64,000 bases of DNA from Escherichia coli (GTDB lineage: Bacteria; Pseudomonadota; Gammaproteobacteria; Enterobacterales; Enterobacteriaceae): assembly GCF_030013595.1 (NCBI RefSeq), contig NZ_CP122768.1. One strand, 5' to 3'. Positions 1 through 11,541 of the stretch are shown here, piece by piece. The position numbers and the translations under genes are program-made. The number at the start of each line of letters is the position of its first letter. Position 1 is the stretch's first letter. The notes beneath the pieces were generated by a model that saw only the letters and a program-made list of their open reading frames with translations, ran no database searches and was not told where the DNA came from.

Positions 1-293
1 TTAACTGGGCTTTTCTCTATCTGCCGTTGGTGTTCATGCCCGAGGCAGATAGCCTCAAGCACACGCAGCAATTTTACTTAACTATTTTTCCGAAAAATTA
101 ATTATTACTAATGCATAGTTTATAAATCACACGATGATATTATAAATCTAGTGTAAGGGAACATTTAAGTTAAGAATCACATTTTACTAGCCAAAAACAT
201 AAAACAGATCTCTTAATAATAAGCAGCTTTTATATAAAAACCACGATGTGTTTTCATAATAATATGCAGTACCAGCTACTCAGCAATATGAGG

Positions 294-812
294 TTATTCA
301 GTCAAGCTTTTGCGCCCGTACGCACTTCTCAAACTTGCACATGTTTCTCTAATCCTAACAATTTGCATACAATCAGGTCTTAGAGGTCGGTTGTGAACAT
401 CACTATCATATGTCATGGCTTGGCGTAATTCCTTAAACAATTTTGCCTTATATTTTTCACCACCGGCCCTTTCAATTTCTTTAGCGATAGTAGTTAAACT
501 CTTAACCTCCCTACTCATTTTTGCTAACGCCAGTGTAGGTTCTTTATTATTATCTTCAGCCCAGAACTCTAAGGCAAAATCCTCAAGCAACTCCAGTTTT
601 TGTCTAAACTCACCGATCCATTCATTATGAGCATCTTTAATAGCATCTCCTCTACTTTTTGTGGTTTGGAGATAAGCAATATATGCCGTAATCCCCCATC
701 CAACTAAAACTAAAAACCAAGTTACATACTGATTTTCATCTTTAAACAAAGAAAAAAACTTACACCAAAAGTCTGCACTCCAAGTACAGACCTGGATACT
801 TGAATTAGCCAT
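294..812 (-). CDS. hypothetical single-pass membrane protein; third gene of AT-rich cargo operon
   Basis: 172-aa ORF; hydrophobic stretch VTWFLVLVGWGITAYIAYL near the N-terminus then a charged helical tail; start ATG overlaps the stop of the upstream gene (8-nt overlap); AT-rich. Confidence 0.55.
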   Translation of the reverse strand: MANSSIQVCTWSADFWCKFFSLFKDENQYVTWFLVLVGWGITAYIAYLQTTKSRGDAIKDAHNEWIGEFRQKLELLEDFALEFWAEDNNKEPTLALAKMSREVKSLTTIAKEIERAGGEKYKAKLFKELRQAMTYDSDVHNRPLRPDCMQIVRIRETCASLRSAYGRKSLTE

Positions 813-1119
813 GAGATACCTTTATAGCGTCCTCGATATATTCATTTATCTCGTCAATTAACTCAGGTTCTTCTTCTGAGATAAATTTAATCCCTTTAAC
901 CTTATCAGGACTCACGCCACGCCTAATCAATCCGCCAAAGCACTCCTCCAAGAAAGAAGAACCATACCCCTCCGTTCCATCAAGGTCTATTGTTAGATCT
1001 GGTGAATGTTTAAGCTCTCTTTCTACCCACTCACGAAACTCCTCACCAGAAGCGGGCCCCAATCTTTTAAAACGAGGTCCTGGGCAAGGATAACGACTGG
1101 CTACTTTTATAATTTTCAT
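805..1119 (-). CDS. small STAS-like (DUF4325-type) protein; second gene of cargo operon
   Basis: About 104 aa from the internal Met (MKIIKVAS...), with GAGGTGGA Shine-Dalgarno upstream and 1 nt after the upstream stop; motif LTIDLDGTEGYGSSFLEECFGGL resembles STAS/anti-sigma-antagonist folds; the ORF track gives a longer 805..1158 version. Confidence 0.6.
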   Translation of the reverse strand: MKIIKVASRYPCPGPRFKRLGPASGEEFREWVERELKHSPDLTIDLDGTEGYGSSFLEECFGGLIRRGVSPDKVKGIKFISEEEPELIDEINEYIEDAIKVSHG

Positions 1120-1120
1120 A

Positions 1121-2287
1121 CTACTCAGTTTCCACCTCACAAGGAATTGTCCATTCAATTATAGTACCATTAACAGAGCTTTTGTAATCTCTAAGCACTT
1201 CGTTAATAATGCCAGTTTTCCCTTTGTAAATATAGCGCCCTTTTGATGAAAAAATCCCCATAAAACCATCACCTATTGAATCGATTACCGATTTGATATC
1301 ATTCAAGCCTTTACCTCGGTTCAGCTCCCCAGTCCTCGTTTCCTGAAGTAACGTGGAAGCCTTTATATAAGTAGAATCCTTTACATTTGCTAATGGAACT
1401 CTAAGTTTTTTGAAGATGTTCATTAGCACACTTACACCTTGTGTTTTAGGCAATGTTGAAGGTATTCCCACTCCTTTATCACATATTACCACTGTAAGAT
1501 TTTTGTCATGTATGCCAGCAAAGGTCCACCACTTAGCTGTTTCGTCATCTTCCGTATGCATTAAATCATCAACATAAGCATGCTCGACAGAATTAGACAT
1601 GGCCTCAGTAAAGCCACGGTATAATTTTTTTGATGATTTTCTTTCTAACTCTTTTTTTATTTCCACCATCATTTCTTTTGCTAAAAGAGGCTCAGAACAA
1701 GAACCTGATGTATATTTCCAAAAAGTCACATCATCATAACTTTCAGTTTCTCTTTTAGGTTTCCTTAATAGATCATAGAAACCGACTTGATTCAAAATGC
1801 TTTCAATTTTCTTGTCTTTCGGATGTGAAAACCCTATGGCATTTACTCCAAATTCACTTTTCTTAATAAGCACATCAACTTCAGCGAGAAAAGATAACAT
1901 AGCAGCTGCACTTATATATTTAGTTGAAGAAAAATCTATATAAACACGATTATTCTTCAACACGCAATCGCGTAAATTATTTAAAAATTTATTCATGATT
2001 TCAAAATCACGATCGTTGTAATAATTAATAGATATCGGAGCAGAAAAAACCACCCTTTTATTACTTGTTGTCAACTTTTTCTTCGAGACTCGTAGCTTAC
2101 GAGTGCGTTTGTAATATTCCAGTTTTCTCTTCGCATTTTCTACTCCTTCCCAATCCGTGCTTTTCAGAGAATTAAATATCCCCCTCTTCAGTTTCGAAAC
2201 TTGCCCGCGATAGTTTAGTTTTTGAACTTTTCTTCTTTTTTGCAGATTCATAAATATTTTCACATTTGATAACATCGCAGATATCAT
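1121..2287 (-). CDS. GHKL/HATPase_c-type ATPase (anti-sigma-factor-kinase-like) with basic N-terminus and a STAS-like middle region; first gene of cargo operon
   Basis: 388-aa ORF; Bergerat-fold motifs read from translation: N-box-like EAMSNSVEHAY, G1-like VVICDKGVGIP, G2-like NRGKGLNDIK, then GT motif; middle region RVYIDFSSTKYISAAAMLSFLAEVDVL resembles STAS; AT-rich. Confidence 0.65.
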   Translation of the reverse strand: MISAMLSNVKIFMNLQKRRKVQKLNYRGQVSKLKRGIFNSLKSTDWEGVENAKRKLEYYKRTRKLRVSKKKLTTSNKRVVFSAPISINYYNDRDFEIMNKFLNNLRDCVLKNNRVYIDFSSTKYISAAAMLSFLAEVDVLIKKSEFGVNAIGFSHPKDKKIESILNQVGFYDLLRKPKRETESYDDVTFWKYTSGSCSEPLLAKEMMVEIKKELERKSSKKLYRGFTEAMSNSVEHAYVDDLMHTEDDETAKWWTFAGIHDKNLTVVICDKGVGIPSTLPKTQGVSVLMNIFKKLRVPLANVKDSTYIKASTLLQETRTGELNRGKGLNDIKSVIDSIGDGFMGIFSSKGRYIYKGKTGIINEVLRDYKSSVNGTIIEWTIPCEVETE

Positions 2288-2657
2288 ATTTCACATGAAA
2301 AATTTTTTGTAGCCCCTCCATCAAAGAAAATCGCTGCCTTTATCAAAAACATTTCGAAATTGTCAGCAACTTAACGTCCCCCCACCCCAACAGTAAAATT
2401 GATCCCACTAGCTCAAGTGAAAGTCACCCCGTAACATCCTGTTGATACCCAGCGCCTGCGCTTTCGCTCTTACAGCATAACAAGAACGATCGATCCCCCA
2501 TATGCTTTCTACCGTCAACGTGCCTACACACTGACCTGAGTGCCATGATTTCCCTCATGCATAACCTGTTCACCGAATATCTCTCGAAAACCATTCTGGT
2601 AAAACGCCAGTACGCGCTGCATAGCTTCGCTCCTCCGACACTCGCGACAGATTATGT

Positions 2658-2999
2658 TCAGACGCCTGTCATAGCGGCGTATTTCTCCGTCTGGTAATGA
2701 ATAAACCAGGTCCGGGTCGCTCTTTTTTTCACTGCTGCTTTCGACATCTTTTTGCGGGCCTTTATCCAGTCCTTACGTGCCTGTTCAGACGGAAATAACC
2801 CGTAGCCGGAGTTGTATAAATCGCCACTGGCAACCAGCTCTCTGGCAAGAACACTCATCAGATACCTTGTCGCACCTGTCTTAGCTTCCAGTTGTCGTAA
2901 CGTCTCGCGCCCACTCTGGTGCACGAGCTCAACAACCTTCCCCTTAATTTTTTCCCGCTCTTCTTGTGTAAATACTTTTGCCATAAGCGCCTCCGGCAA
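2658..2999 (-). CDS. phage hypothetical protein
   Basis: 113-aa ORF directly downstream of and co-directional with the replication-module genes; no recognisable motif. Confidence 0.45.
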   Translation of the reverse strand: MPEALMAKVFTQEEREKIKGKVVELVHQSGRETLRQLEAKTGATRYLMSVLARELVASGDLYNSGYGLFPSEQARKDWIKARKKMSKAAVKKRATRTWFIHYQTEKYAAMTGV

Positions 3000-3770
3000 T
3001 CACTTTTCCGATGCAACATGGCGGGAAGAATCAGTAATCTGTCGTACAATATCCCTGTGCTTGTTCAACTCACGCAGCGCGGCGCAGACACGCTCCCACT
3101 TCTGGGCATGACTTTTCGCCCGGCGCAGTTCGCGGTTTGCCATATGCAGCGATGGTAAAATCAGGCCATCAGCTCGTGTTTCAGTGAACGATGGCAGCGA
3201 CTGCACAATGTCCGCCACAGTTTCTGTTTTAATATCTTCCTGTGTTGCAGCTTCCTGTACTGGTAACGCAACACTTGCTGGCTGAGGAAAGGCTTTACCA
3301 TCAGTTTCCGCTACCAATGCAGCTTTCGGCTCTGCTGGTAAATTATCGCCCGGTATGCAGTAGCGAAATTTACCGTTCTGGTTTACGCGTGCCAGCCGCC
3401 CCGTTGCGGTTACTACCGCCAGCGTGGAAGCAACCTTGCGAGTGCTGACACCGAACTTACCCGCCAGTTCCTCACACGTTTTAGCTCCCTCCTGACCGAT
3501 AAACTCAATCATCATGTCAGCGGTAACTTTTCGTTCGACCTCCCTGGTTAGCACATCCTGTACTTCAGATTGTGCTGGCTGCTCTTCGGCTACCCCTGAT
3601 TCACCTTCGCCAGCCACACGCCAGGTGTATACGCTTTTATCAACGAAGCCAGCCTTTTTCAGTTCCCACAGCTCGTTCAGTACTTCTTCACGACTGATAT
3701 CAAGTCGCGCAGCCAGCTCTACCGACGTGGCTTTTCCCATCGCTTTCAGTGCGTCAAAAACGGTCTCCAT
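3000..3770 (-). CDS. phage DNA-binding protein, winged-helix-like (YdaW-position gene, appears full length)
   Basis: ORF 3000..3821; likely start at internal Met [30 protein letters not shown] (HTH-like); follows the ydaV-like gene. Confidence 0.5.
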
Positions 3771-3792
3771 TAAAATTTCCTCCCGGTAAAAA

Positions 3793-4539
3793 TTACTTCT
3801 CAATACCTGGCTGACCAACATTCGGGCGCCAGCTCTCCCAGTTAAAATTCACCCAGCGCCCGCCGTTCATGGTCATGCGGTCCATAATCCGCTCGCCGAG
3901 CAGCGTTTTCATGGCCTCATAGTTCAGGTTTGTCAGCATTCCCACGCTGCGCATCGACGCTGTCCGGCGATCAACAATCTGGTGCAGTACCACCTGCTCG
4001 TTTTTCGTCTCGCGCTGAATGCCAATTTCATCAAGAACCAGCAGATCCACTTCGCACAGTTCCCGCAAAAATTTTTCGCCTGATTGCCCGTCGTCATAGC
4101 TGGCGTGTAGAGCACTCATAACATCAGCCACGGTAACCACAATCACTGTCTGGCCATCTTTCAGCAGGCGATTCCCGATAGCCGCCGCTAAGTGGTTTTT
4201 CCCGGTACCAGGTTTTCCGCTGAATGCGAAATTTGTGCATCCGGTCATCAGTTCATCGGCGATGGATTTCGCCTGGCTCAGCGCGTATCGCTGGTCGTCA
4301 TTCTGCACCTGGTAATTCGCAAACGAGCACTTGCGGTGCAACGGCTGGATGCCGGAGCGATTCAGAATTTTTTCCACCCGCAACTGACGATTCTGGCGGT
4401 TGATCTCCTCGCAACGCTTCTGGCCTTCTGCAAGTTGCCACTCGCGCCACTCGTCCACTGTTCGGTATGGCGCGGTTACATGCTGCGGAGCCAGCTTACG
4501 GATGCGTTCAAGAACACCGCCTGTCGCAATATTTTTCAT
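3793..4539 (-). CDS. ydaV: Rac prophage DnaC/IstB-like replication ATPase (helicase loader)
   Basis: 248 aa; Walker [16 protein letters not shown] and DnaC-like layout; matches remembered YdaV length. Confidence 0.85.
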
Positions 4540-4545
4540 GCTTCG

Positions 4546-5430
4546 TTACCCCCTGAAGCCTGGTGGGATCGCACTGTCCGGAAACGAGACGGTGTTAACC
4601 TGTCGAAGCAACGTCTCAGGCCGAACGCCTTTCGGCGCGAACAAGCCCTGGTATTCATGGGCAATGCTGTGTCTAATCACCTGCTCAGGGGTAAAACCCT
4701 GCTGGCGGAATTTTTCCAGCTCCCGTATCGCCCCGTTAGCGCCCTGCTCCGTTCGAATCGGTTTTCGCAATGCCTGCCTGAATTGAACCCACTCATGCCA
4801 GAGTGTTTCCGGCAACCACTCAGGCAGAGCAACTGACAACGGGTCGAATTTTTTAGTCGCTCGTTTTTGGTGAGGGAGATTTAGAGGGAGATCAGTATTT
4901 ATATCTTCCTCTTCCTCTTCCTCTTCCTCTTCCTCTTCCTCTGGTAACGCTTTTTGATCCGTTTGTGTAACGCTGGCAGCGTTACCTTTTCGTTTCAGTT
5001 CACGTATTTTTGTTACTCGCTCGTTTGTAACCGCCCGTTTTTTTGAGCTTTTTCCGTTATGACGTTCAAAGTTAGGTAGCGAAAGCCCACCGTCATTTTC
5101 GACCAGCCATCCAACCTGAATTAGCGCATCAGCAAAACCAGCCATAAAAGTGATGCGATCTATTGCACTTTTTGTAACGCTGCGAGCGTTACACTCTACG
5201 TTACCGTCTATCATTTGTTGATCCGCCCATACCCAGAAGCGAATGACTTTCCCTAATGCGGCATCTGGATCAATATTCAGAATCTCAGCAAGCCTGAATA
5301 TTTCCGGCTTATCCGGCGTAATAACCTCGAGCTTTATCCAGTTTGAAGCCATATTGTTTTCACCTTGTAACGCTGTGAGCGTTACATTTAACTGATACCG
5401 AACAAAACAGTCCGGCACGATTAATTTCAA
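4546..5430 (-). CDS. ydaU: Rac prophage replication-initiation-like protein with internal poly-Glu tract
   Basis: 294-aa ORF in YdaU position; contains 12 consecutive Glu encoded by a hexanucleotide repeat. Confidence 0.8.
   Translation of the reverse strand: MKLIVPDCFVRYQLNVTLTALQGENNMASNWIKLEVITPDKPEIFRLAEILNIDPDAALGKVIRFWVWADQQMIDGNVECNARSVTKSAIDRITFMAGFADALIQVGWLVENDGGLSLPNFERHNGKSSKKRAVTNERVTKIRELKRKGNAASVTQTDQKALPEEEEEEEEEEEEDINTDLPLNLPHQKRATKKFDPLSVALPEWLPETLWHEWVQFRQALRKPIRTEQGANGAIRELEKFRQQGFTPEQVIRHSIAHEYQGLFAPKGVRPETLLRQVNTVSFPDSAIPPGFRG
4905..4940. repeat. perfect hexanucleotide tandem repeat (CTTCCT)x6 on + strand, encoding poly-Glu in ydaU-like gene
   Basis: Read directly: cttcct repeated six times. 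Confidence 0.9.
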
Positions 5431-5853
5431 TCAATGCACTACAACAGAATCGTCGGACGCTCCACCACCGCTGAAATGTGCTTTCCGGTAAACGGCCTGG
5501 ACTGCATCATCATGCGCATCAATTGCCGTACTCAACGCTTCCTGCGCCGCCAGTAATGCACGGCGTTCCAGGGTATCGAAGATGCAGAGTCGATGACGCA
5601 GCTCCCGCGGAAGGATTGCCAGAATTGCTGGGATCAGCTTCTGAATTTTTTCCCTTTGCGCTTCCGTTTCACCTTTTAACCAACGATGATAGATATTCTG
5701 CTGATTGTTCCAGTCCCTGCCTGGTACCAAGGGCAATTCGCCGTCCCCCTGGCGCAGATATTCTTCAGTAATTGCATTGGCTACCCATGCCTGCCCTTTT
5801 TCAGCGGCCAGGGCTAACAGCACTGATTCAATGTGCTCATGCCTGATTTTCAT
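5431..5853 (-). CDS. ydaT: Rac prophage protein YdaT-like
   Basis: 140-aa ORF in conserved position and of matching length to K-12 YdaT. Confidence 0.8.
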   Translation of the reverse strand: MKIRHEHIESVLLALAAEKGQAWVANAITEEYLRQGDGELPLVPGRDWNNQQNIYHRWLKGETEAQREKIQKLIPAILAILPRELRHRLCIFDTLERRALLAAQEALSTAIDAHDDAVQAVYRKAHFSGGGASDDSVVVH

Positions 5854-6139
5854 GAATCAACTCCTGTGCATTTTGTGTGTTAGCTTTACATCCAACAGGT
5901 AAACCATCGGTCGGATTCGGGTAGATATCAGGCCGAAGTTCATGAGGTGTAACCTCGAAATTCGTAGCCTCCGCGATACGCAATACCTTTTCGGGGCTTA
6001 ACTGACTACGGCCAGTAGCTACGAGGCTAATCATTGATTGCGAACAACCAGCGAGTGCAGCCAAACAAGACTGTCGTACACGATTTTTTTTCAAATATTC
6101 ATCTAATGTCATAAGGGTCACCTTAGTAATGCCTGTCAA
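5837..6139 (-). CDS. ydaS: Cro-like HTH regulator YdaS-like
   Basis: 100-aa ORF divergent from racR; HTH segment QSCLAALAGCSQSMISLVATG; start may be the internal Met (MTLDEYL). Confidence 0.8.
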   Translation of the reverse strand: MTGITKVTLMTLDEYLKKNRVRQSCLAALAGCSQSMISLVATGRSQLSPEKVLRIAEATNFEVTPHELRPDIYPNPTDGLPVGCKANTQNAQELIHENQA

Positions 6140-6216: not shown

Positions 6217-6681
6217 ATGAGAAGAAAACGCGAAGAAATCGCATCGCCAGAAGCTACGCAGCGTCTGCGCGCAGTCTGGGATGCCAAAAAAAGAGAGCTC
6301 AAACTGACTCAGGAGCTTGCTGCTGAGCTAATGGGCTTTGAGACTCAATCCACAGTTAGCCACTATCTCAACGGAAAGGCTCCACTAAACACTGATGCAG
6401 CATTAAAATTCGCTGTATTACTAAGAGTTAAGCCTGAAGAGTTGAGGCCTGATTTAGCTGATCTGATGAATTACGTCCGTTCCTCAGGAACTTATGACGA
6501 AAGTTTCGAAGGAGAAGGTTGGCGGATGGTTAACAAGCAACAAGCTGATTTACTGGATCTTTTTGAAATCCTACCCGAATCAGAAAAAGCAAAACTAATC
6601 GAAAGGCTTAAAGGTCAGAATGAACTCTACAAAGAAGCGTTTGAAAAGATGCTGGCAGCTCAGAAACGCATGAAGAAATAG
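6217..6681 (+). CDS. racR: Rac prophage repressor (CI-like HTH)
   Basis: 154-aa ORF with HTH (TQELAAELMGFETQSTVSHYLNG), divergent from ydaS. Confidence 0.8.
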   Translation: MRRKREEIASPEATQRLRAVWDAKKRELKLTQELAAELMGFETQSTVSHYLNGKAPLNTDAALKFAVLLRVKPEELRPDLADLMNYVRSSGTYDESFEGEGWRMVNKQQADLLDLFEILPESEKAKLIERLKGQNELYKEAFEKMLAAQKRMKK

Positions 6682-7462: not shown

Positions 7463-7630
7463 AGTGAATTTTGTGATGCGGTGAATGCGGCTCAGCGCAC
7501 GCGGAACAGTTAAAAAAGTGATCGGTACTCTGTATTTGTTTTATGGAGTTGGTTTCCCTGTATTCCGGCGTTAATTGTTAACTGGTTAACGTCACCTGGA
7601 GGCACCAGGCACCGCATCACAAAATTCACT
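7463..7630. repeat. 21-bp perfect inverted repeat (AGTGAATTTTGTGATGCGGTG at 7463..7483, reverse complement at 7610..7630) flanking a 126-bp spacer in a non-coding gap
   Basis: Read directly from sequence. Confidence 0.85.
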
Positions 7631-7652
7631 TAGTAACCAAGAAGAGAATTAT

Positions 7653-7925
7653 ATGCAAGAGATAAGTTTTGAAATAACAGCAAAAGATGTACAGGTTAAG
7701 CCCGATTACAATCAAAAATTATGTATTGAAGTCAATGGCGTGAAGTTATCAGACCTGATTGATTCAGTTGAAGATAACGACGCTATTATTGAAATGGTTG
7801 GAGCCGAAGAAATAGCAGAATACTTTTCAACAGAGGGGCGTCTTCATGAGCTTCTGGAAAAATTTTCATATCAGGATATCGCTACATTTCTGGAAATTAA
7901 TGGTTATAAAGTTACCGAGGAATAA
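7653..7925 (+). CDS. hypothetical small strongly acidic protein (prophage early-region gene)
   Basis: 90-aa ORF; about 21 Asp/Glu versus about 8 basic residues by my count; not recognisable as kilR or sieB. Confidence 0.5.
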   Translation: MQEISFEITAKDVQVKPDYNQKLCIEVNGVKLSDLIDSVEDNDAIIEMVGAEEIAEYFSTEGRLHELLEKFSYQDIATFLEINGYKVTEE

Positions 7926-7943
7926 AGTAGCTCAGGTGGCGTT

Positions 7944-8153
7944 ATGGAACGTAATCATCTAACAGCTATCAGTGCCGCACAGAGTAAATTCGCCATCGCT
8001 GTATTTTTACAGGATGAAGAAATGTTTGAGCAGGCCATTATTCAGTTTGCAATTGCGACCGGGAGTAAAATAAATGAACACTTTGTTCGCTCTTGTCATG
8101 ACCGTTTTTCTGACATCAGGCGAAACTCAGGATGTTGTTACCGGAATTTATAA
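7944..8153 (+). CDS. hypothetical small protein (uncertain; overlaps next ORF in another frame)
   Basis: 69-aa ORF with AGGTGG Shine-Dalgarno 6 nt upstream; overlaps 8074..8310 by 80 nt. Confidence 0.3.
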   Translation: MERNHLTAISAAQSKFAIAVFLQDEEMFEQAIIQFAIATGSKINEHFVRSCHDRFSDIRRNSGCCYRNL

Positions 8154-8310
8154 CTCCGAATCTGAATGCAAGGCCGCAGCTATTGAGCAAAAAGTAGCTG
8201 GTGAATGTTTCCCTGTTGAGAAATTTATCCGGCCTGTAGATGAAGAAATTCCCGCAGGCCTCACAGGAGAAAATCATGAAAATAAAATGTGGTTACCACC
8301 TTTGCAATAA
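8074..8310 (+). CDS. hypothetical small protein with hydrophobic N-terminus (kilR-position gene, identity not confirmed)
   Basis: 78-aa ORF with GGGAG Shine-Dalgarno; N-terminal MNTLFALVMTVFLTSG is signal-peptide or TM-like. Confidence 0.4.
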   Translation: MNTLFALVMTVFLTSGETQDVVTGIYNSESECKAAAIEQKVAGECFPVEKFIRPVDEEIPAGLTGENHENKMWLPPLQ

Positions 8311-8440
8311 AGACGTTGAAGAAAGCAAAACCATTAAAAGACCACTTCATTTCATGCGTGGAGTTATCCCAACGACGGAAATGAAAAAATATTGTAGTGA
8401 AAATTGTGCCGAAAAAGACCAGATGGCACACGAACTTTAA
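8276..8440 (+). CDS. ydaE: Rac prophage small Cys-rich protein YdaE
   Basis: 54-aa ORF MKIKCGYHLCNKDVEESKTIKRPLHFMRGVIPTTEMKKYCSENCAEKDQMAHEL with AGGAGAAAA Shine-Dalgarno. Confidence 0.7.
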   Translation: MKIKCGYHLCNKDVEESKTIKRPLHFMRGVIPTTEMKKYCSENCAEKDQMAHEL

Positions 8441-8514
8441 TTAACTGACTATTCGAAACTGAATTTATGCCAGAAATGGCAGGGATTCGCTCAACCTTAA
8501 TTAAGGAGAAAAAC

Positions 8515-8790
8515 ATGATTACCAATTATGAAACCACTGTTGTAACTACCGATGACATTGTTCACGAGGTGAATCTGGAAGGAAAGCGCATTGGCTACGT
8601 AATTAAAACAGAAAATAAAGAAACCCCATTCACTGTGGTTGATATCGATGGTCCATCAGGCAACGTAAAAACACTTGATGAAGGTGTCACAAAAATGAGC
8701 CTGGTTCACATCGGAAAGAATCTGCCCGCAGAAAAAAAAGCCGGATTTCTGGCAACTCTGATCGCAATGAAATTAAACGGTGAAATCTGA
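8515..8790 (+). CDS. racC: Rac prophage protein RacC
   Basis: 91 aa from MITNYETTVV...; matches remembered RacC. Confidence 0.8.
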   Translation: MITNYETTVVTTDDIVHEVNLEGKRIGYVIKTENKETPFTVVDIDGPSGNVKTLDEGVTKMSLVHIGKNLPAEKKAGFLATLIAMKLNGEI

Positions 8791-8889
8791 AAAAAAGAAA
8801 GCCTGCACTGTGTGCAGGCCTGAGTGAAGAACCTGGGACATTTATTCATCACTCGCAGTAATTTTAATCTGAGTTGAGGTTAAAAAACA

Positions 8890-11541
8890 ATGAGCACAAA
8901 ACCACTCTTCCTTTTACGGAAAGCGAAAAAATCATCCGGTGAGCCTGACGTCGTCCTGTGGGCAAGCGACGATTTTGAATCAACCTGTGCCACTCTGGAC
9001 TACCTGATCGTTAAGTCAGGTAAAAAACTGAGCAACTATTTTAAAGCTATTGCAACTAATTTTCCTGTCGTTAATGACCTGCCCCCTGAAGGTGAGATCG
9101 ATTTTACCTGGAGTGAACGCTATCAACTCAGCAAAGACTCCATGACATGGGAACTAAAACCGGGAGCAGCGCCAGACGACGTTCACCACCAGGATAATGC
9201 TCAAGAAACCAACGAACTGGCGGGAGGCCAGGAAGAAAACGCGCAGGCAGACGCCCACGAGGATTGCCAGGATTGCGAAGTCTCTGTAGCCACTTTGCGG
9301 TTCACACAGCGTCTTCTGCACATTTTTACGTATGCAGCCGGGGATCGGAAATACCTGCATCATGCCACCCGTGAACAACGCAAACACATTACTGCTCTTG
9401 AGATGGATCAGGAAAACAGCTATGTCCAGAATCTGCTGTTGGCCATACGCAGCATGGCAGAACCGACAACTCTGGATAATGCCGCCCTGCTCCGCCTGAC
9501 TGATGCAATTAAGGCAGTGTTCTCTATCACGAAAAAACATCAGCCCTATGAATTTAAGAATTTCATTTCAGCCTGGCTGGATACCGAACACATTGATCGC
9601 GGTCTTCTGACAAAAGAATGGCGAAAAGGAAATCGTGTTTCACGCATCACGCGCACGGCTTCCGGCGCTAATGCTGGCGGCGGAAACCTCACCGATCGCG
9701 GCGAAGGTTTCGTTCACGATCTGACGTCACTGGCGCGCGACGTAGCCACTGGCGTACTGGCTCGTTCAATGGACGTGGACATTTATAACCTTCATCCGGC
9801 ACACGCTAAACGTGTCGAGGAAATTATCGCTGAAAATAAACCACCCTTTTCTGTTTTCCGCGACAAATTCATCACCATGCCTGGTGGGCTGGATTATTCC
9901 CGCGCCATCGTGGTTGCGTCCGTAAAAGAAGCACCAATTGGGATCGAGGTTATCCCCGCACACGTCACCGAATATCTTAACAAAGTACTGACTGAAACTG
10001 ATCATGCCAACCCTGATCCAGAAATCGTGGATATTGCCTGCGGTCGTTCCTCTGCCCCGATGCCGCAGCGTGTAACAGAAGAAGAAAAACAGGATGATGA
10101 AGAAAAACTGCAACCATCTTGCGCAATGGCAGATGAACAGGCAACGGCTGAAACAGTGGAACCGGATGCAACTGAACATCATCAGGACACGCAGTCGCTG
10201 GATGCTCAGTCACAGGTAAATTCTGTTGATGCGAAATATCAGAAACTGCGGGCAGAACTCCATGAAGCCCGGAAAAACATTCCGCCCAAAAATCCTGTCG
10301 ATGCAGACAAATTACTGGCTGCCTCTCGCGGAGAATTTGTTGAAGGGATTAGCGACCCGAATGATCCGAAATGGGTTAAGGGGATCCAGACCCGCGATTC
10401 TGTGTACCAGAACCAGCCAGAAACGGAAAAAACCAGCCCGGATGTGAAACAACCTGAGCCAGTAGTGCAACAGGAACCGGAAATAGTCTGCAATGCCTGC
10501 GGTCAGACTGGCGGGGATAACTGCCCTGACTGTGGTGCAGTGATGGGCGACGCAACATACCAGGAAACATTCGGTGAAGAGAATCAGGTTGAAGCTAAGG
10601 AAAAAGATCCGGAGGAAATGGAAGGCGCTGAACATCCGCACAATGAGAATGCTGGCAGCGATCCGCATCGCGATTGCAGTGATGAAACTGGCGAAGTCGC
10701 AGATCCCGTAATCGTAGAAGACATAGAGCCAGGTATTTATTACGGAATTTCGAATGAGAATTACCACGCGGGTCCCGGTGTCAGTAAGTCTCAGCTCGAT
10801 GACATTGCTGATACTCCGGCACTGTATTTGTGGCGTAAAAATGCCCCCGTGGACACTACAAAGACAAAAACGCTCGATTTAGGAACCGCTTTCCACTGCC
10901 GGGTACTTGAACCGGAAGAATTCAGTAACCGCTTTATCGTAGCACCTGAATTTAACCGCCGTACAAACGCCGGAAAAGAAGAAGAGAAAGCGTTTCTGAT
11001 GGAATGCGCAAGCACAGGAAAAACGGTTATCACTGCGGAAGAAGGCCGGAAAATTGAACTCATGTATCAAAGCGTTATGGCTTTGCCGCTGGGGCAATGG
11101 CTTGTTGAAAGCGCCGGACACGCTGAATCATCAATTTACTGGGAAGATCCGGAAACAGGAATTTTGTGTCGGTGCCGTCCGGACAAAATTATTCCTGAAT
11201 TTCACTGGATCATGGACGTGAAAACCACAGCGGATATTCAACGATTCAAAACGACTTATTACGACTACCGCTATCACGTTCAGGATGCATTCTACAGTGA
11301 CGGTTATGAAGCACAGTTTGGTGTGCAGCCAACTTTCGTTTTTCTGGTTGCCAGCACAACTGTTGAATGCGGACGTTATCCGGTTGAGATTTTCATGATG
11401 GGCGAAGAAGCAAAACTGGCAGGCCAGCAGGAATATCACCGCAATCTGCGGACCCTGGCTGACTGCCTAAATACCGATGAATGGCCAGCTATTAAGACGT
11501 TATCACTGCCCCGCTGGGCTAAGGAGTATGCAAATGACTAA
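8890..11541 (+). CDS. recE: exodeoxyribonuclease VIII (RecE), full length
   Basis: 883-aa ORF; N- and C-terminal regions match remembered K-12 RecE ([22 protein letters not shown]... and ...[13 protein letters not shown]); Cys cluster [16 protein letters not shown]. Confidence 0.9.

Follow-up and report, generated by a model that had tools for sequence, protein, structure and literature searches.

An apparent 370-bp gap in a Rac-like prophage of Escherichia coli: a probable composite junction of decayed phage genes and a short cassette leader

Accessory transcription units, the morons of Hendrix and colleagues, are reportedly found inserted between the genes of lambdoid prophages. Prophages also possess anti-phage hotspots, of which those of P2 (between gpA and portal) and P4 are the closest described cases, and cloned hotspot systems of P2 and P4 have been shown to work from their native promoters (Rousset et al. 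2022, PMC9122126). With regard to the kind of cargo considered below, the kinase/STAS modules CapK-CapS and VapKSC were recently described (Chambers et al., EMBO J 2026, PMC13373217). With regard to the prophage itself, the standard of comparison is the Rac prophage of E. coli, with its early genes in the order ydaS-ydaT-ydaU-ydaV-ydaW.

The locus examined here lies in a 64,000-nt stretch of E. coli DNA, which I will call the window. Its features are collected in Table 1, and I will refer to aligned loci from other records by number, beginning with L001, the record of ETEC1748, which is 100% identical to the window over 2200-3000. According to ORF calls, all of the genes around the region of interest lie on the minus strand, and the early operon has a Rac-like order (racR-like repressor, cro-like gene, ydaT, ydaU-like gene, ydaV, DUF1627, DUF977), the same as that of the Rac prophage. 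The window departs from the early region of E. coli Rac in what comes afterwards: its DUF977 gene is frameshifted and is followed by the remnant of an HTH gene and then by a cargo of three genes. The phage backbone picks up again at hok/sok, the locus that bounds the cargo site on its far side. The sokW regions of Stx phages share 93.6% identity with window 1-91, and hokD lies just past the window edge in the identical ETEC1748 record.

Two observations concern the replication genes. L001 carries, at 7597-8965, a lambda-P-like replication gene and a DnaT-like gene in place of the window's ydaV and ydaU-like genes (window 3793-4539); the replication module is thus mosaic among otherwise identical relatives, beside an identical cargo junction. 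The ydaU-like replication protein of the window contains an unbroken stretch of 13 glutamates (EEEEEEEEEEEEE).

Table 1. Coordinates of the features discussed, in order of position in the window.
Feature	Position	Strand	Basis or remark
sok antitoxin RNA, cut by window start	1-64	-	Rfam RF01794, E 5.6e-07
Third cargo gene: 172-aa hypothetical protein with hydrophobic segment	294-812	-	ORF and translation
Second cargo gene: 104-aa STAS-like protein (DUF4325)	805-1119	-	Pfam DUF4325, E 7e-12; RefSeq STAS-like domain-containing
First cargo gene: 376-aa GHKL-type ATP-binding protein (WP_223718946.1)	1121-2251	-	Start ATG 2251
Cassette-borne leader, 30% GC	2252-2343	-	Aligns with upstream DNA of cassette in L008, L011, L013, L014
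Antisense sigma-70-like site TTCACA-17-TATCAT	2259-2287	+	10/12 positions, 13.3 bits, 0.04 expected per strand
Candidate -10 hexamer TATGAT	2283-2288	-	Best sense-strand PWM site in gap
Candidate -35 box TACAAA, inside conserved GGnCTACAA box	2306-2311	-	Box kept 17-18 nt upstream of -10 hexamer
Decayed 93-aa phage HTH gene (phrog_323-like)	2344-2546	-	ATG 2546-2544; homology strong in 2411-2546, weak in 2344-2410
lygF/DUF977 (YdaW-like), frameshifted pseudogene	2524-2984	-	RefSeq annotation of identical DNA; alignment to intact homologues
DUF977 ORF as it stands, truncated	2658-2999	-	Stop codon 2658-2660
Homopolymer A7 (coding strand), cause of -1 frameshift in lygF	2723-2729	-	
DUF1627	3000-3821	-	Early operon
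ydaV (IstB-like)	3793-4539	-	Early operon
ydaU-like gene	4546-5430	-	Early operon
ydaT	5431-5853	-	Early operon
cro-like gene	5837-6139	-	Early operon, first in transcription order
Repressor	6217-6681		Divergent from early operon

Between the DUF977 ORF and the first cargo gene, an earlier note had pointed to a gap of 370 bp (2288-2657), described as non-coding and ORF-free, and had argued from its size that it serves as the control region of an autonomous inserted cassette with a promoter of its own. The spacing is unusual, in that the remaining genes of the operon abut or overlap. The reading I favor, with a probability of roughly 0.7, is that the gap is a composite hotspot junction in a Rac-like prophage, put together from the frameshifted tail of lygF, a decayed HTH gene and a leader of about 90 bp that belongs to the cargo and contains a promoter.

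The coordinates of the gap are correct for mechanically called ORFs, running from ATG 2287 to the DUF977 stop codon, but both borders are artefacts. No ORF of at least 60 aa lies between 2288 and 2657, and to that extent the gap is free of ORFs, but minus-strand ORFs of 32-56 aa do exist (2408-2518, 2424-2594 and 2524-2622). The 56-aa ORF at 2424-2594 was considered as a real small gene and rejected, since it arises from reading the lygF tail and the remnant of the HTH gene in the wrong frame. Nor is the region non-coding in origin: the 3' end of lygF occupies 2524-2657 and the HTH-gene remnant 2411-2533.

lygF is the name given to the DUF977 gene in phage records, and its last 134 bp fall inside the gap, out of frame. 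They seem non-coding because of a -1 slip in the run of A's within the gene. The run consists of seven A's in the window and in L001, eight in L016, L017 and L027, and nine in L015. The three loci with eight are viral contigs containing near-identical prophages, and in these lygF is intact, with a product of 153 aa. When one A is restored to the window's sequence, a 153-aa product results that matches Pfam DUF977 (PF06163) over 1-133/134 (E 6e-28), as against 1-88 only for the truncated ORF as it stands. RefSeq describes the identical DNA as "DUF977 family protein, frameshifted", and does likewise in strain EcPNK006. By these comparisons lygF would be a pseudogene here, unless the length of the A-run is a sequencing error. 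The variation from A7 to A8 to A9 could flip lygF between intact and frameshifted forms, whether it represents slippage or homopolymer sequencing error.

The next component of the gap is what is left of a small phage gene. Its intact product, a 93-aa protein (WP_240766184.1 / WP_001509842.1), matches phrog_323, a transcriptional regulator, with an E-value of 2.8e-25, and gives weak matches to Pfam HTH models. In the window, the start codon of the remnant overlaps the lygF tail. Residues 5-46 are found by tblastn at 2533-2411 (60% identity, E 3e-13), and the C-terminal HTH (residues about 48-86) is barely recognizable. One extra nucleotide follows codon 4, 30 nt are deleted near 2415, stop codons interrupt the frame and the 3' end is gone. 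A weak colinear match extends over 2415-2344, where the score of 31, compared to 23.2 +- 3.7 for shuffled sequences, is marginal (17 of 500 shuffles reach it).

The region 2252-2579 was compared by blastn with 5426 complete E. coli genomes. The entire region is found in only the 23 genomes that bear the cassette, and parts of it in many others. DNA 86% identical to window 2432-2578 occurs in 12 genomes; in the two inspected, it comprises the end of an intact DUF977 gene and the unannotated DNA beyond, followed by ParA-family cargo. Another match, to the first half of the 93-aa gene, covers window 2417-2561 at about 77% identity, with up to 445 records falling in the 60-80% band; in the two of these inspected, the 93-aa gene lies directly after DUF1627 and is annotated as "DNA-binding protein" or "hypothetical protein". 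Amongst the numbered loci, the remnant shows about 77% identity by blastn to the intact gene in L006/L007 and 86% to the copy in L004/L005. The 93-aa gene is intact in other Rac-like prophages that lack this cargo, and the remnant is syntenic with it (after DUF1627/DUF977). Normally the HTH gene follows or replaces lygF.

It is highly improbable, in light of these remnants, that the whole 370 bp constitutes a dedicated promoter/operator region of the inserted cassette. An unusually long gap without a long ORF in a tightly packed operon did invite that idea, and the cassette is indeed foreign and mobile. However, relatives that lack the cassette have phage genes homologous to 2411-2657, which refutes the idea for about two-thirds of the gap, and the GC content of this portion is phage-like (48-49%). 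In other settings the cassette carries only about 80-100 bp of upstream DNA. Furthermore, the gap yielded neither repeats or operators nor any RNA family or stable fold: a search for operators as repeats or inverted repeats gave only short, chance-level matches, Rfam at a permissive threshold over window 1-3100 returned sok as its sole match and none in the gap, and the RNA fold of the gap is no more stable than those of shuffles (z = -1.0). The earlier note had itself said that it would be refuted if the gap were conserved phage sequence in Rac relatives lacking the cassette, and at least 240 of the 370 bp prove to be phage sequence conserved also in relatives without it. Because most of the gap is phage gene debris, the argument from its size fails. 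The gap is an ordinary prophage-hotspot junction and not a 370-bp control region; the intergenic space that is biologically meaningful is 2252-2523 (272 bp), about 92 bp of which are free of gene debris.

Of the whole gap, that debris-free portion, the leader, alone moves together with the cargo genes. Homology to cassette-free relatives stops at about 2344, and homology to cassettes in other contexts starts at about 2328-2355; the recombination junction would lie at about 2344. GC content is 48% in 2344-2523, 30% in the leader and 37% in the cassette genes, with phage genes at 49-51%. The upstream DNA shared across contexts amounts to only about 80-100 bp before the ATG and contains a conserved "CTACAAAA ... 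GAAATATGATA". A copy of the cassette with 89% identity, found at a Rac-like site, has the same junction with the HTH-gene remnant.

The other border of the gap depends on where the ATPase begins. Its longest ORF, 1121-2287, starts at ATG 2287, and the start in RefSeq is ATG 2251. Homologues with 82-89% identity (from Cronobacter, Leclercia and a metagenomic contig) are all 376 aa in length and align with full coverage, and the in-frame ATGs at 2287 and 2275 are present only in this lineage. Because the homologues all have 376 aa and the upstream ATGs are lineage-restricted, the true start is, on this alignment, ATG 2251, so that 2252-2287 belongs to the gap. The second cargo gene also has a longest ORF (805-1158) that differs from the RefSeq call (805-1119).

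The resemblance of the cargo proteins to known families is limited. The match of the ATPase to HATPase_c_2 is weak, falling under the Pfam cut-off. In the AlphaFold model of the protein (pLDDT 75.6), the N-terminal alpha/beta domain is well predicted, and the best structural matches of the C-terminal domain are to SpoIIAB and GyrB ATPase domains, with weak E-values (0.012 or worse) and a probability of up to 0.99. The STAS protein, at 104 aa, has neither a second domain nor a wHTH. The third product found no match in Pfam and none to PIN. PADLOC and NCBIfam models gave no matches to the cargo proteins, PDB sequences searched with the ATPase (itself and as a profile) and with the STAS protein gave no meaningful match to solved structures, and searches of the literature by protein accession and by DUF4325 turned up nothing on this cassette.

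The cargo may nonetheless be compared to VapKSC and CapK-CapS (PMC13373217). As in those modules, there is a three-gene operon in which the first product is predicted to have a GHKL SpoIIAB-like fold behind an N-terminal alpha/beta domain and the second is a STAS-like protein of about 100 aa. Unlike VapKSC, the third gene encodes a 172-aa hydrophobic protein and no VapC PIN nuclease, and unlike CapS, the STAS protein lacks a wHTH, for which reason a CapS-type repressor/operator is not expected in the gap. I do not class the cargo as a member of VapKSC or CapK-CapS; its architecture recalls them, with a membrane protein in the place of the PIN toxin. By analogy, the three-gene cassette is a candidate for an uncharacterized defense module.

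The cassette occurs in 23 of the 5426 complete E. coli genomes, in copies that are all about 100% identical and always at this junction, and a search of plasmids gave no matches to it. Contexts outside this junction were taken from other genera and from viral contigs. In one of them the cassette comes after the phage integrase at the prophage end (L008-L012, L018, L020 and L023, including Cronobacter and Leclercia prophages), and in two of the aligned loci, L008 and L011, an apparent 3' end of a tRNA gene can be made out by eye after the cassette. In another, it occupies the P2-like gpA/portal hotspot (L014, L019, L021, L022, L024, L026 and L028-L030), and the third setting is the Rac-like site between lygF and hok. 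The genes upstream are unrelated between contexts (lygF remnant, integrase or P2 gpA-side ORFs), the upstream neighbor is co-directional with the cassette in every context examined, and the third cargo gene keeps its place as third in all of them. The view that the cargo is an autonomous inserted cassette is borne out by the recurrence of this gene trio, its order unchanged, in three kinds of site, and by the presence of other cargo at this site in relatives. To judge from its distribution, the three-gene cargo is an autonomous cassette that moves horizontally.

Two of the P2-like contexts (L014 4777-5007 and L026 3765-3977) have a small ORF of 70-76 aa, beginning "MNSHD.KRI", immediately upstream of the cassette and overlapping the promoter region. 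It is common to two phages whose ATPases are only 58-77% identical to that of the window.

What occupies the interval between lygF and hok differs from one genome to another. In L002 (1546-3977) it is a methyltransferase with sce7726 and beta-family proteins, in L003 (394-3787) the annotated anti-phage pair IteA/IteS, and in L004 (2077-3123) a ParA-family protein; in L006/L007 (2410-3354), DUF4406 and small ORFs lie after the 93-aa gene and before hok. The interval between lygF/DUF977 (or the 93-aa gene) and hok thus appears to behave as a cargo hotspot of Rac-like prophages. In having different cargo in different genomes, IteA/IteS included, the site resembles the anti-phage hotspots of P2 and P4 (PMC9122126), and relatives of the cassette sit in the P2-like gpA/portal hotspot itself. 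It differs from them in belonging to a Rac-like lambdoid prophage, where it extends from lygF/DUF977 to hok/sok, and in the window its cargo matches no PADLOC model.

The likeness to a moron is also partial. Conserved phage genes flank a foreign, AT-rich block that relatives lack, and the cassette has a short upstream region of its own bearing a promoter-like element, recognized by its conservation. Unlike a moron, however, the cassette has no detected terminator flanking it, and most of the DNA that appears intergenic is phage gene debris from outside the cassette. The feature may be described as a moron-type cargo junction in a prophage hotspot, with the foreign composition, the absence from relatives and the promoter-like element, but with no terminator found.

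Whether the leader contains a promoter cannot be read from the strength of its match to consensus. The earlier note saw no convincing sigma-70 promoter by eye, and the best sense-strand site is in fact weak: TACAAA(2311-2306)-17-TATGAT(2288-2283) agrees with the sigma-70 consensus at 8 of 12 positions and scores 7.8 bits, and about 2.1 such sites would be expected per strand in shuffled sequences, so that no match above chance is found on score alone. Promoter prediction, which the note had proposed, gave a divided answer, a consensus scan of window 1-3100 listing no minus-strand site in the gap and a PWM placing its best sense site at 2283-2311. The first in-frame ATG (2287-2285), which the earlier note had used as the start, lies within the candidate -10 hexamer.

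The case for a promoter comes from the position of the hexamer in other copies of the cassette. Of 16 distinct upstream sequences, chosen by an ATPase identity of at least 43% and homologous to one another, 12 have a TATNAT with its end 29-37 nt upstream of the ATG; given the homology, these 12 are not independent events. The remaining 9-nt bins of the 160 nt upstream contain 0-1 TATNAT each, and in 5000 shuffles the number of sequences, out of 16, with TATNAT at that position averaged 0.4 and never exceeded 5. The hexamer is not at that position in L020, L023, L026 and L028. In the 11 non-duplicate sequences that bear the hexamer, the box 18 nt upstream of it reads CTACAA, CTATTC, CTATCC or TTGCAC/G, the last (TTGCAC/TTGCAG) in L029 and L030, which are among the most distant members, and beyond the box, farther 5', are A/T tracts where an UP element would sit. 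The position of the hexamer is kept while the flanking sequence diverges beyond alignment. From this pattern I infer that the conserved element is likely to act as a promoter of the cassette on the sense strand. Its transcripts would start near 2276, leaving a leader of about 25 nt before ATG 2251. More distant relatives of the ATPase (30-35% identity) were considered as evidence on the promoter and rejected, since their N-terminal extension is missing and their upstream arrangements are unrelated.

The claim of a separate promoter and control region therefore survives in part: a leader with a position-conserved, -10-like hexamer makes a promoter likely, but there is no operator-like repeat, and the gap is mostly phage debris. 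The earlier note was probably right in its conclusion, an autonomous cassette with its own promoter, and wrong in its argument from gap size.

The cassette might, alternatively, have no promoter of its own and be expressed solely by read-through from upstream, the hexamer being a feature of the leader or of translation, or simply inherited sequence. I consider this unlikely, though the co-directional neighbor found in every context examined is consistent with it, as are the chance-level score of the sense sigma-70 match and the lack of a terminator between lygF and the cassette. Indeed, no intrinsic terminators were found anywhere in window 1-3100, neither before nor after the cassette. (A hairpin after the third gene can be seen by eye in one L014 relative, and it has no counterpart in this lineage.) Because no terminator intervenes, read-through from the early operon after induction is likely, and the cassette is, by this prediction, not transcriptionally insulated from the phage operon. 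Read-through as the only source of expression, however, fits poorly with a hexamer that keeps its position amid diverged flanks and that has a conserved box at the -35 spacing and A/T tracts farther upstream. It also fits poorly with the unrelated genes upstream. In temperate phages such unrelated genes are not expected to be equally transcribed in lysogens.

The near-palindromic hexamer raises another alternative, that it serves mainly the plus-strand site (Table 1), with which the sense -10 shares it, and that this promoter fires away from the cassette into the gap, antisense to the lygF remnant. As a sigma-70 match the plus-strand site is the best in the region, there are moderate antisense matches in L008, L011, L013 and L019, and a second plus-strand site (TTAACG-17-TAAAAT, 2371-2399, 12.4 bits) likewise opposes all of the genes. 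Neither of the plus-strand sites, though, is conserved in more distant relatives. The antisense arrangement scores poorly (2-7 bits), and lower than the sense one, in L021, L022, L024, L029 and L030; the antisense -35 coincides with the ribosome-binding stretch of the cassette and is not conserved as a -35; and the conserved box and the A/T tracts are placed as one would expect of a promoter facing the sense direction. Moreover, spurious promoter-like sites abound in AT-rich foreign DNA in E. coli. That the hexamer serves mainly an antisense promoter is thus quite unlikely, although such a promoter could coexist with one on the sense strand. Because the antisense match decays in distant lineages that keep the sense arrangement, and because its -35 lies in the ribosome-binding stretch, the antisense site is ranked as probably secondary or fortuitous.

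The two orientations might conceivably be combined. GGnCTAYnn-18-TATnAT could be a dedicated, regulated promoter, perhaps bidirectional by virtue of its palindromic -10, that travels with a widespread, phage-borne, VapKSC-like kinase/STAS/membrane-effector cassette and keeps it expressed in the lysogen whatever the site, its antisense arm damping read-through from the early operon. This is a long shot.

Under the composite junction that I favor, the gap would be read, in the direction of transcription, as follows. From 2657 to 2524 would come the lygF/DUF977 tail, out of frame through the 1-nt slip in the A-run only, overlapped from 2546 and continued to about 2344 by the decayed small phage HTH gene. 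The AT-rich leader of about 90 bp, from about 2343 to 2252, would have arrived with the cargo, bringing an unusual -35 (GGnCTACAA), a 17/18-nt spacer and a TATGAT -10. In a lysogen, with the early operon repressed, the cassette-borne promoter would express the three cargo genes, and after induction read-through from the early operon would add to their expression, there being no terminator between.

For annotation, this means that labeling the gap a 370-bp regulatory region would be a mistake. A clone of the cargo that is to include the native promoter should require only about 100 bp ahead of ATG 2251, which is also the start to use rather than 2287. More generally, apparent intergenic space at prophage hotspots can consist of decayed flanking genes, and these can mark a recombination junction, here at about 2344. 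The comparison also identifies the interval between lygF and hok in Rac-like prophages as a probable site of cargo exchange. The cargo itself is the more interesting object, a kinase/STAS/membrane-protein cassette that sits in several classic phage defense hotspots.
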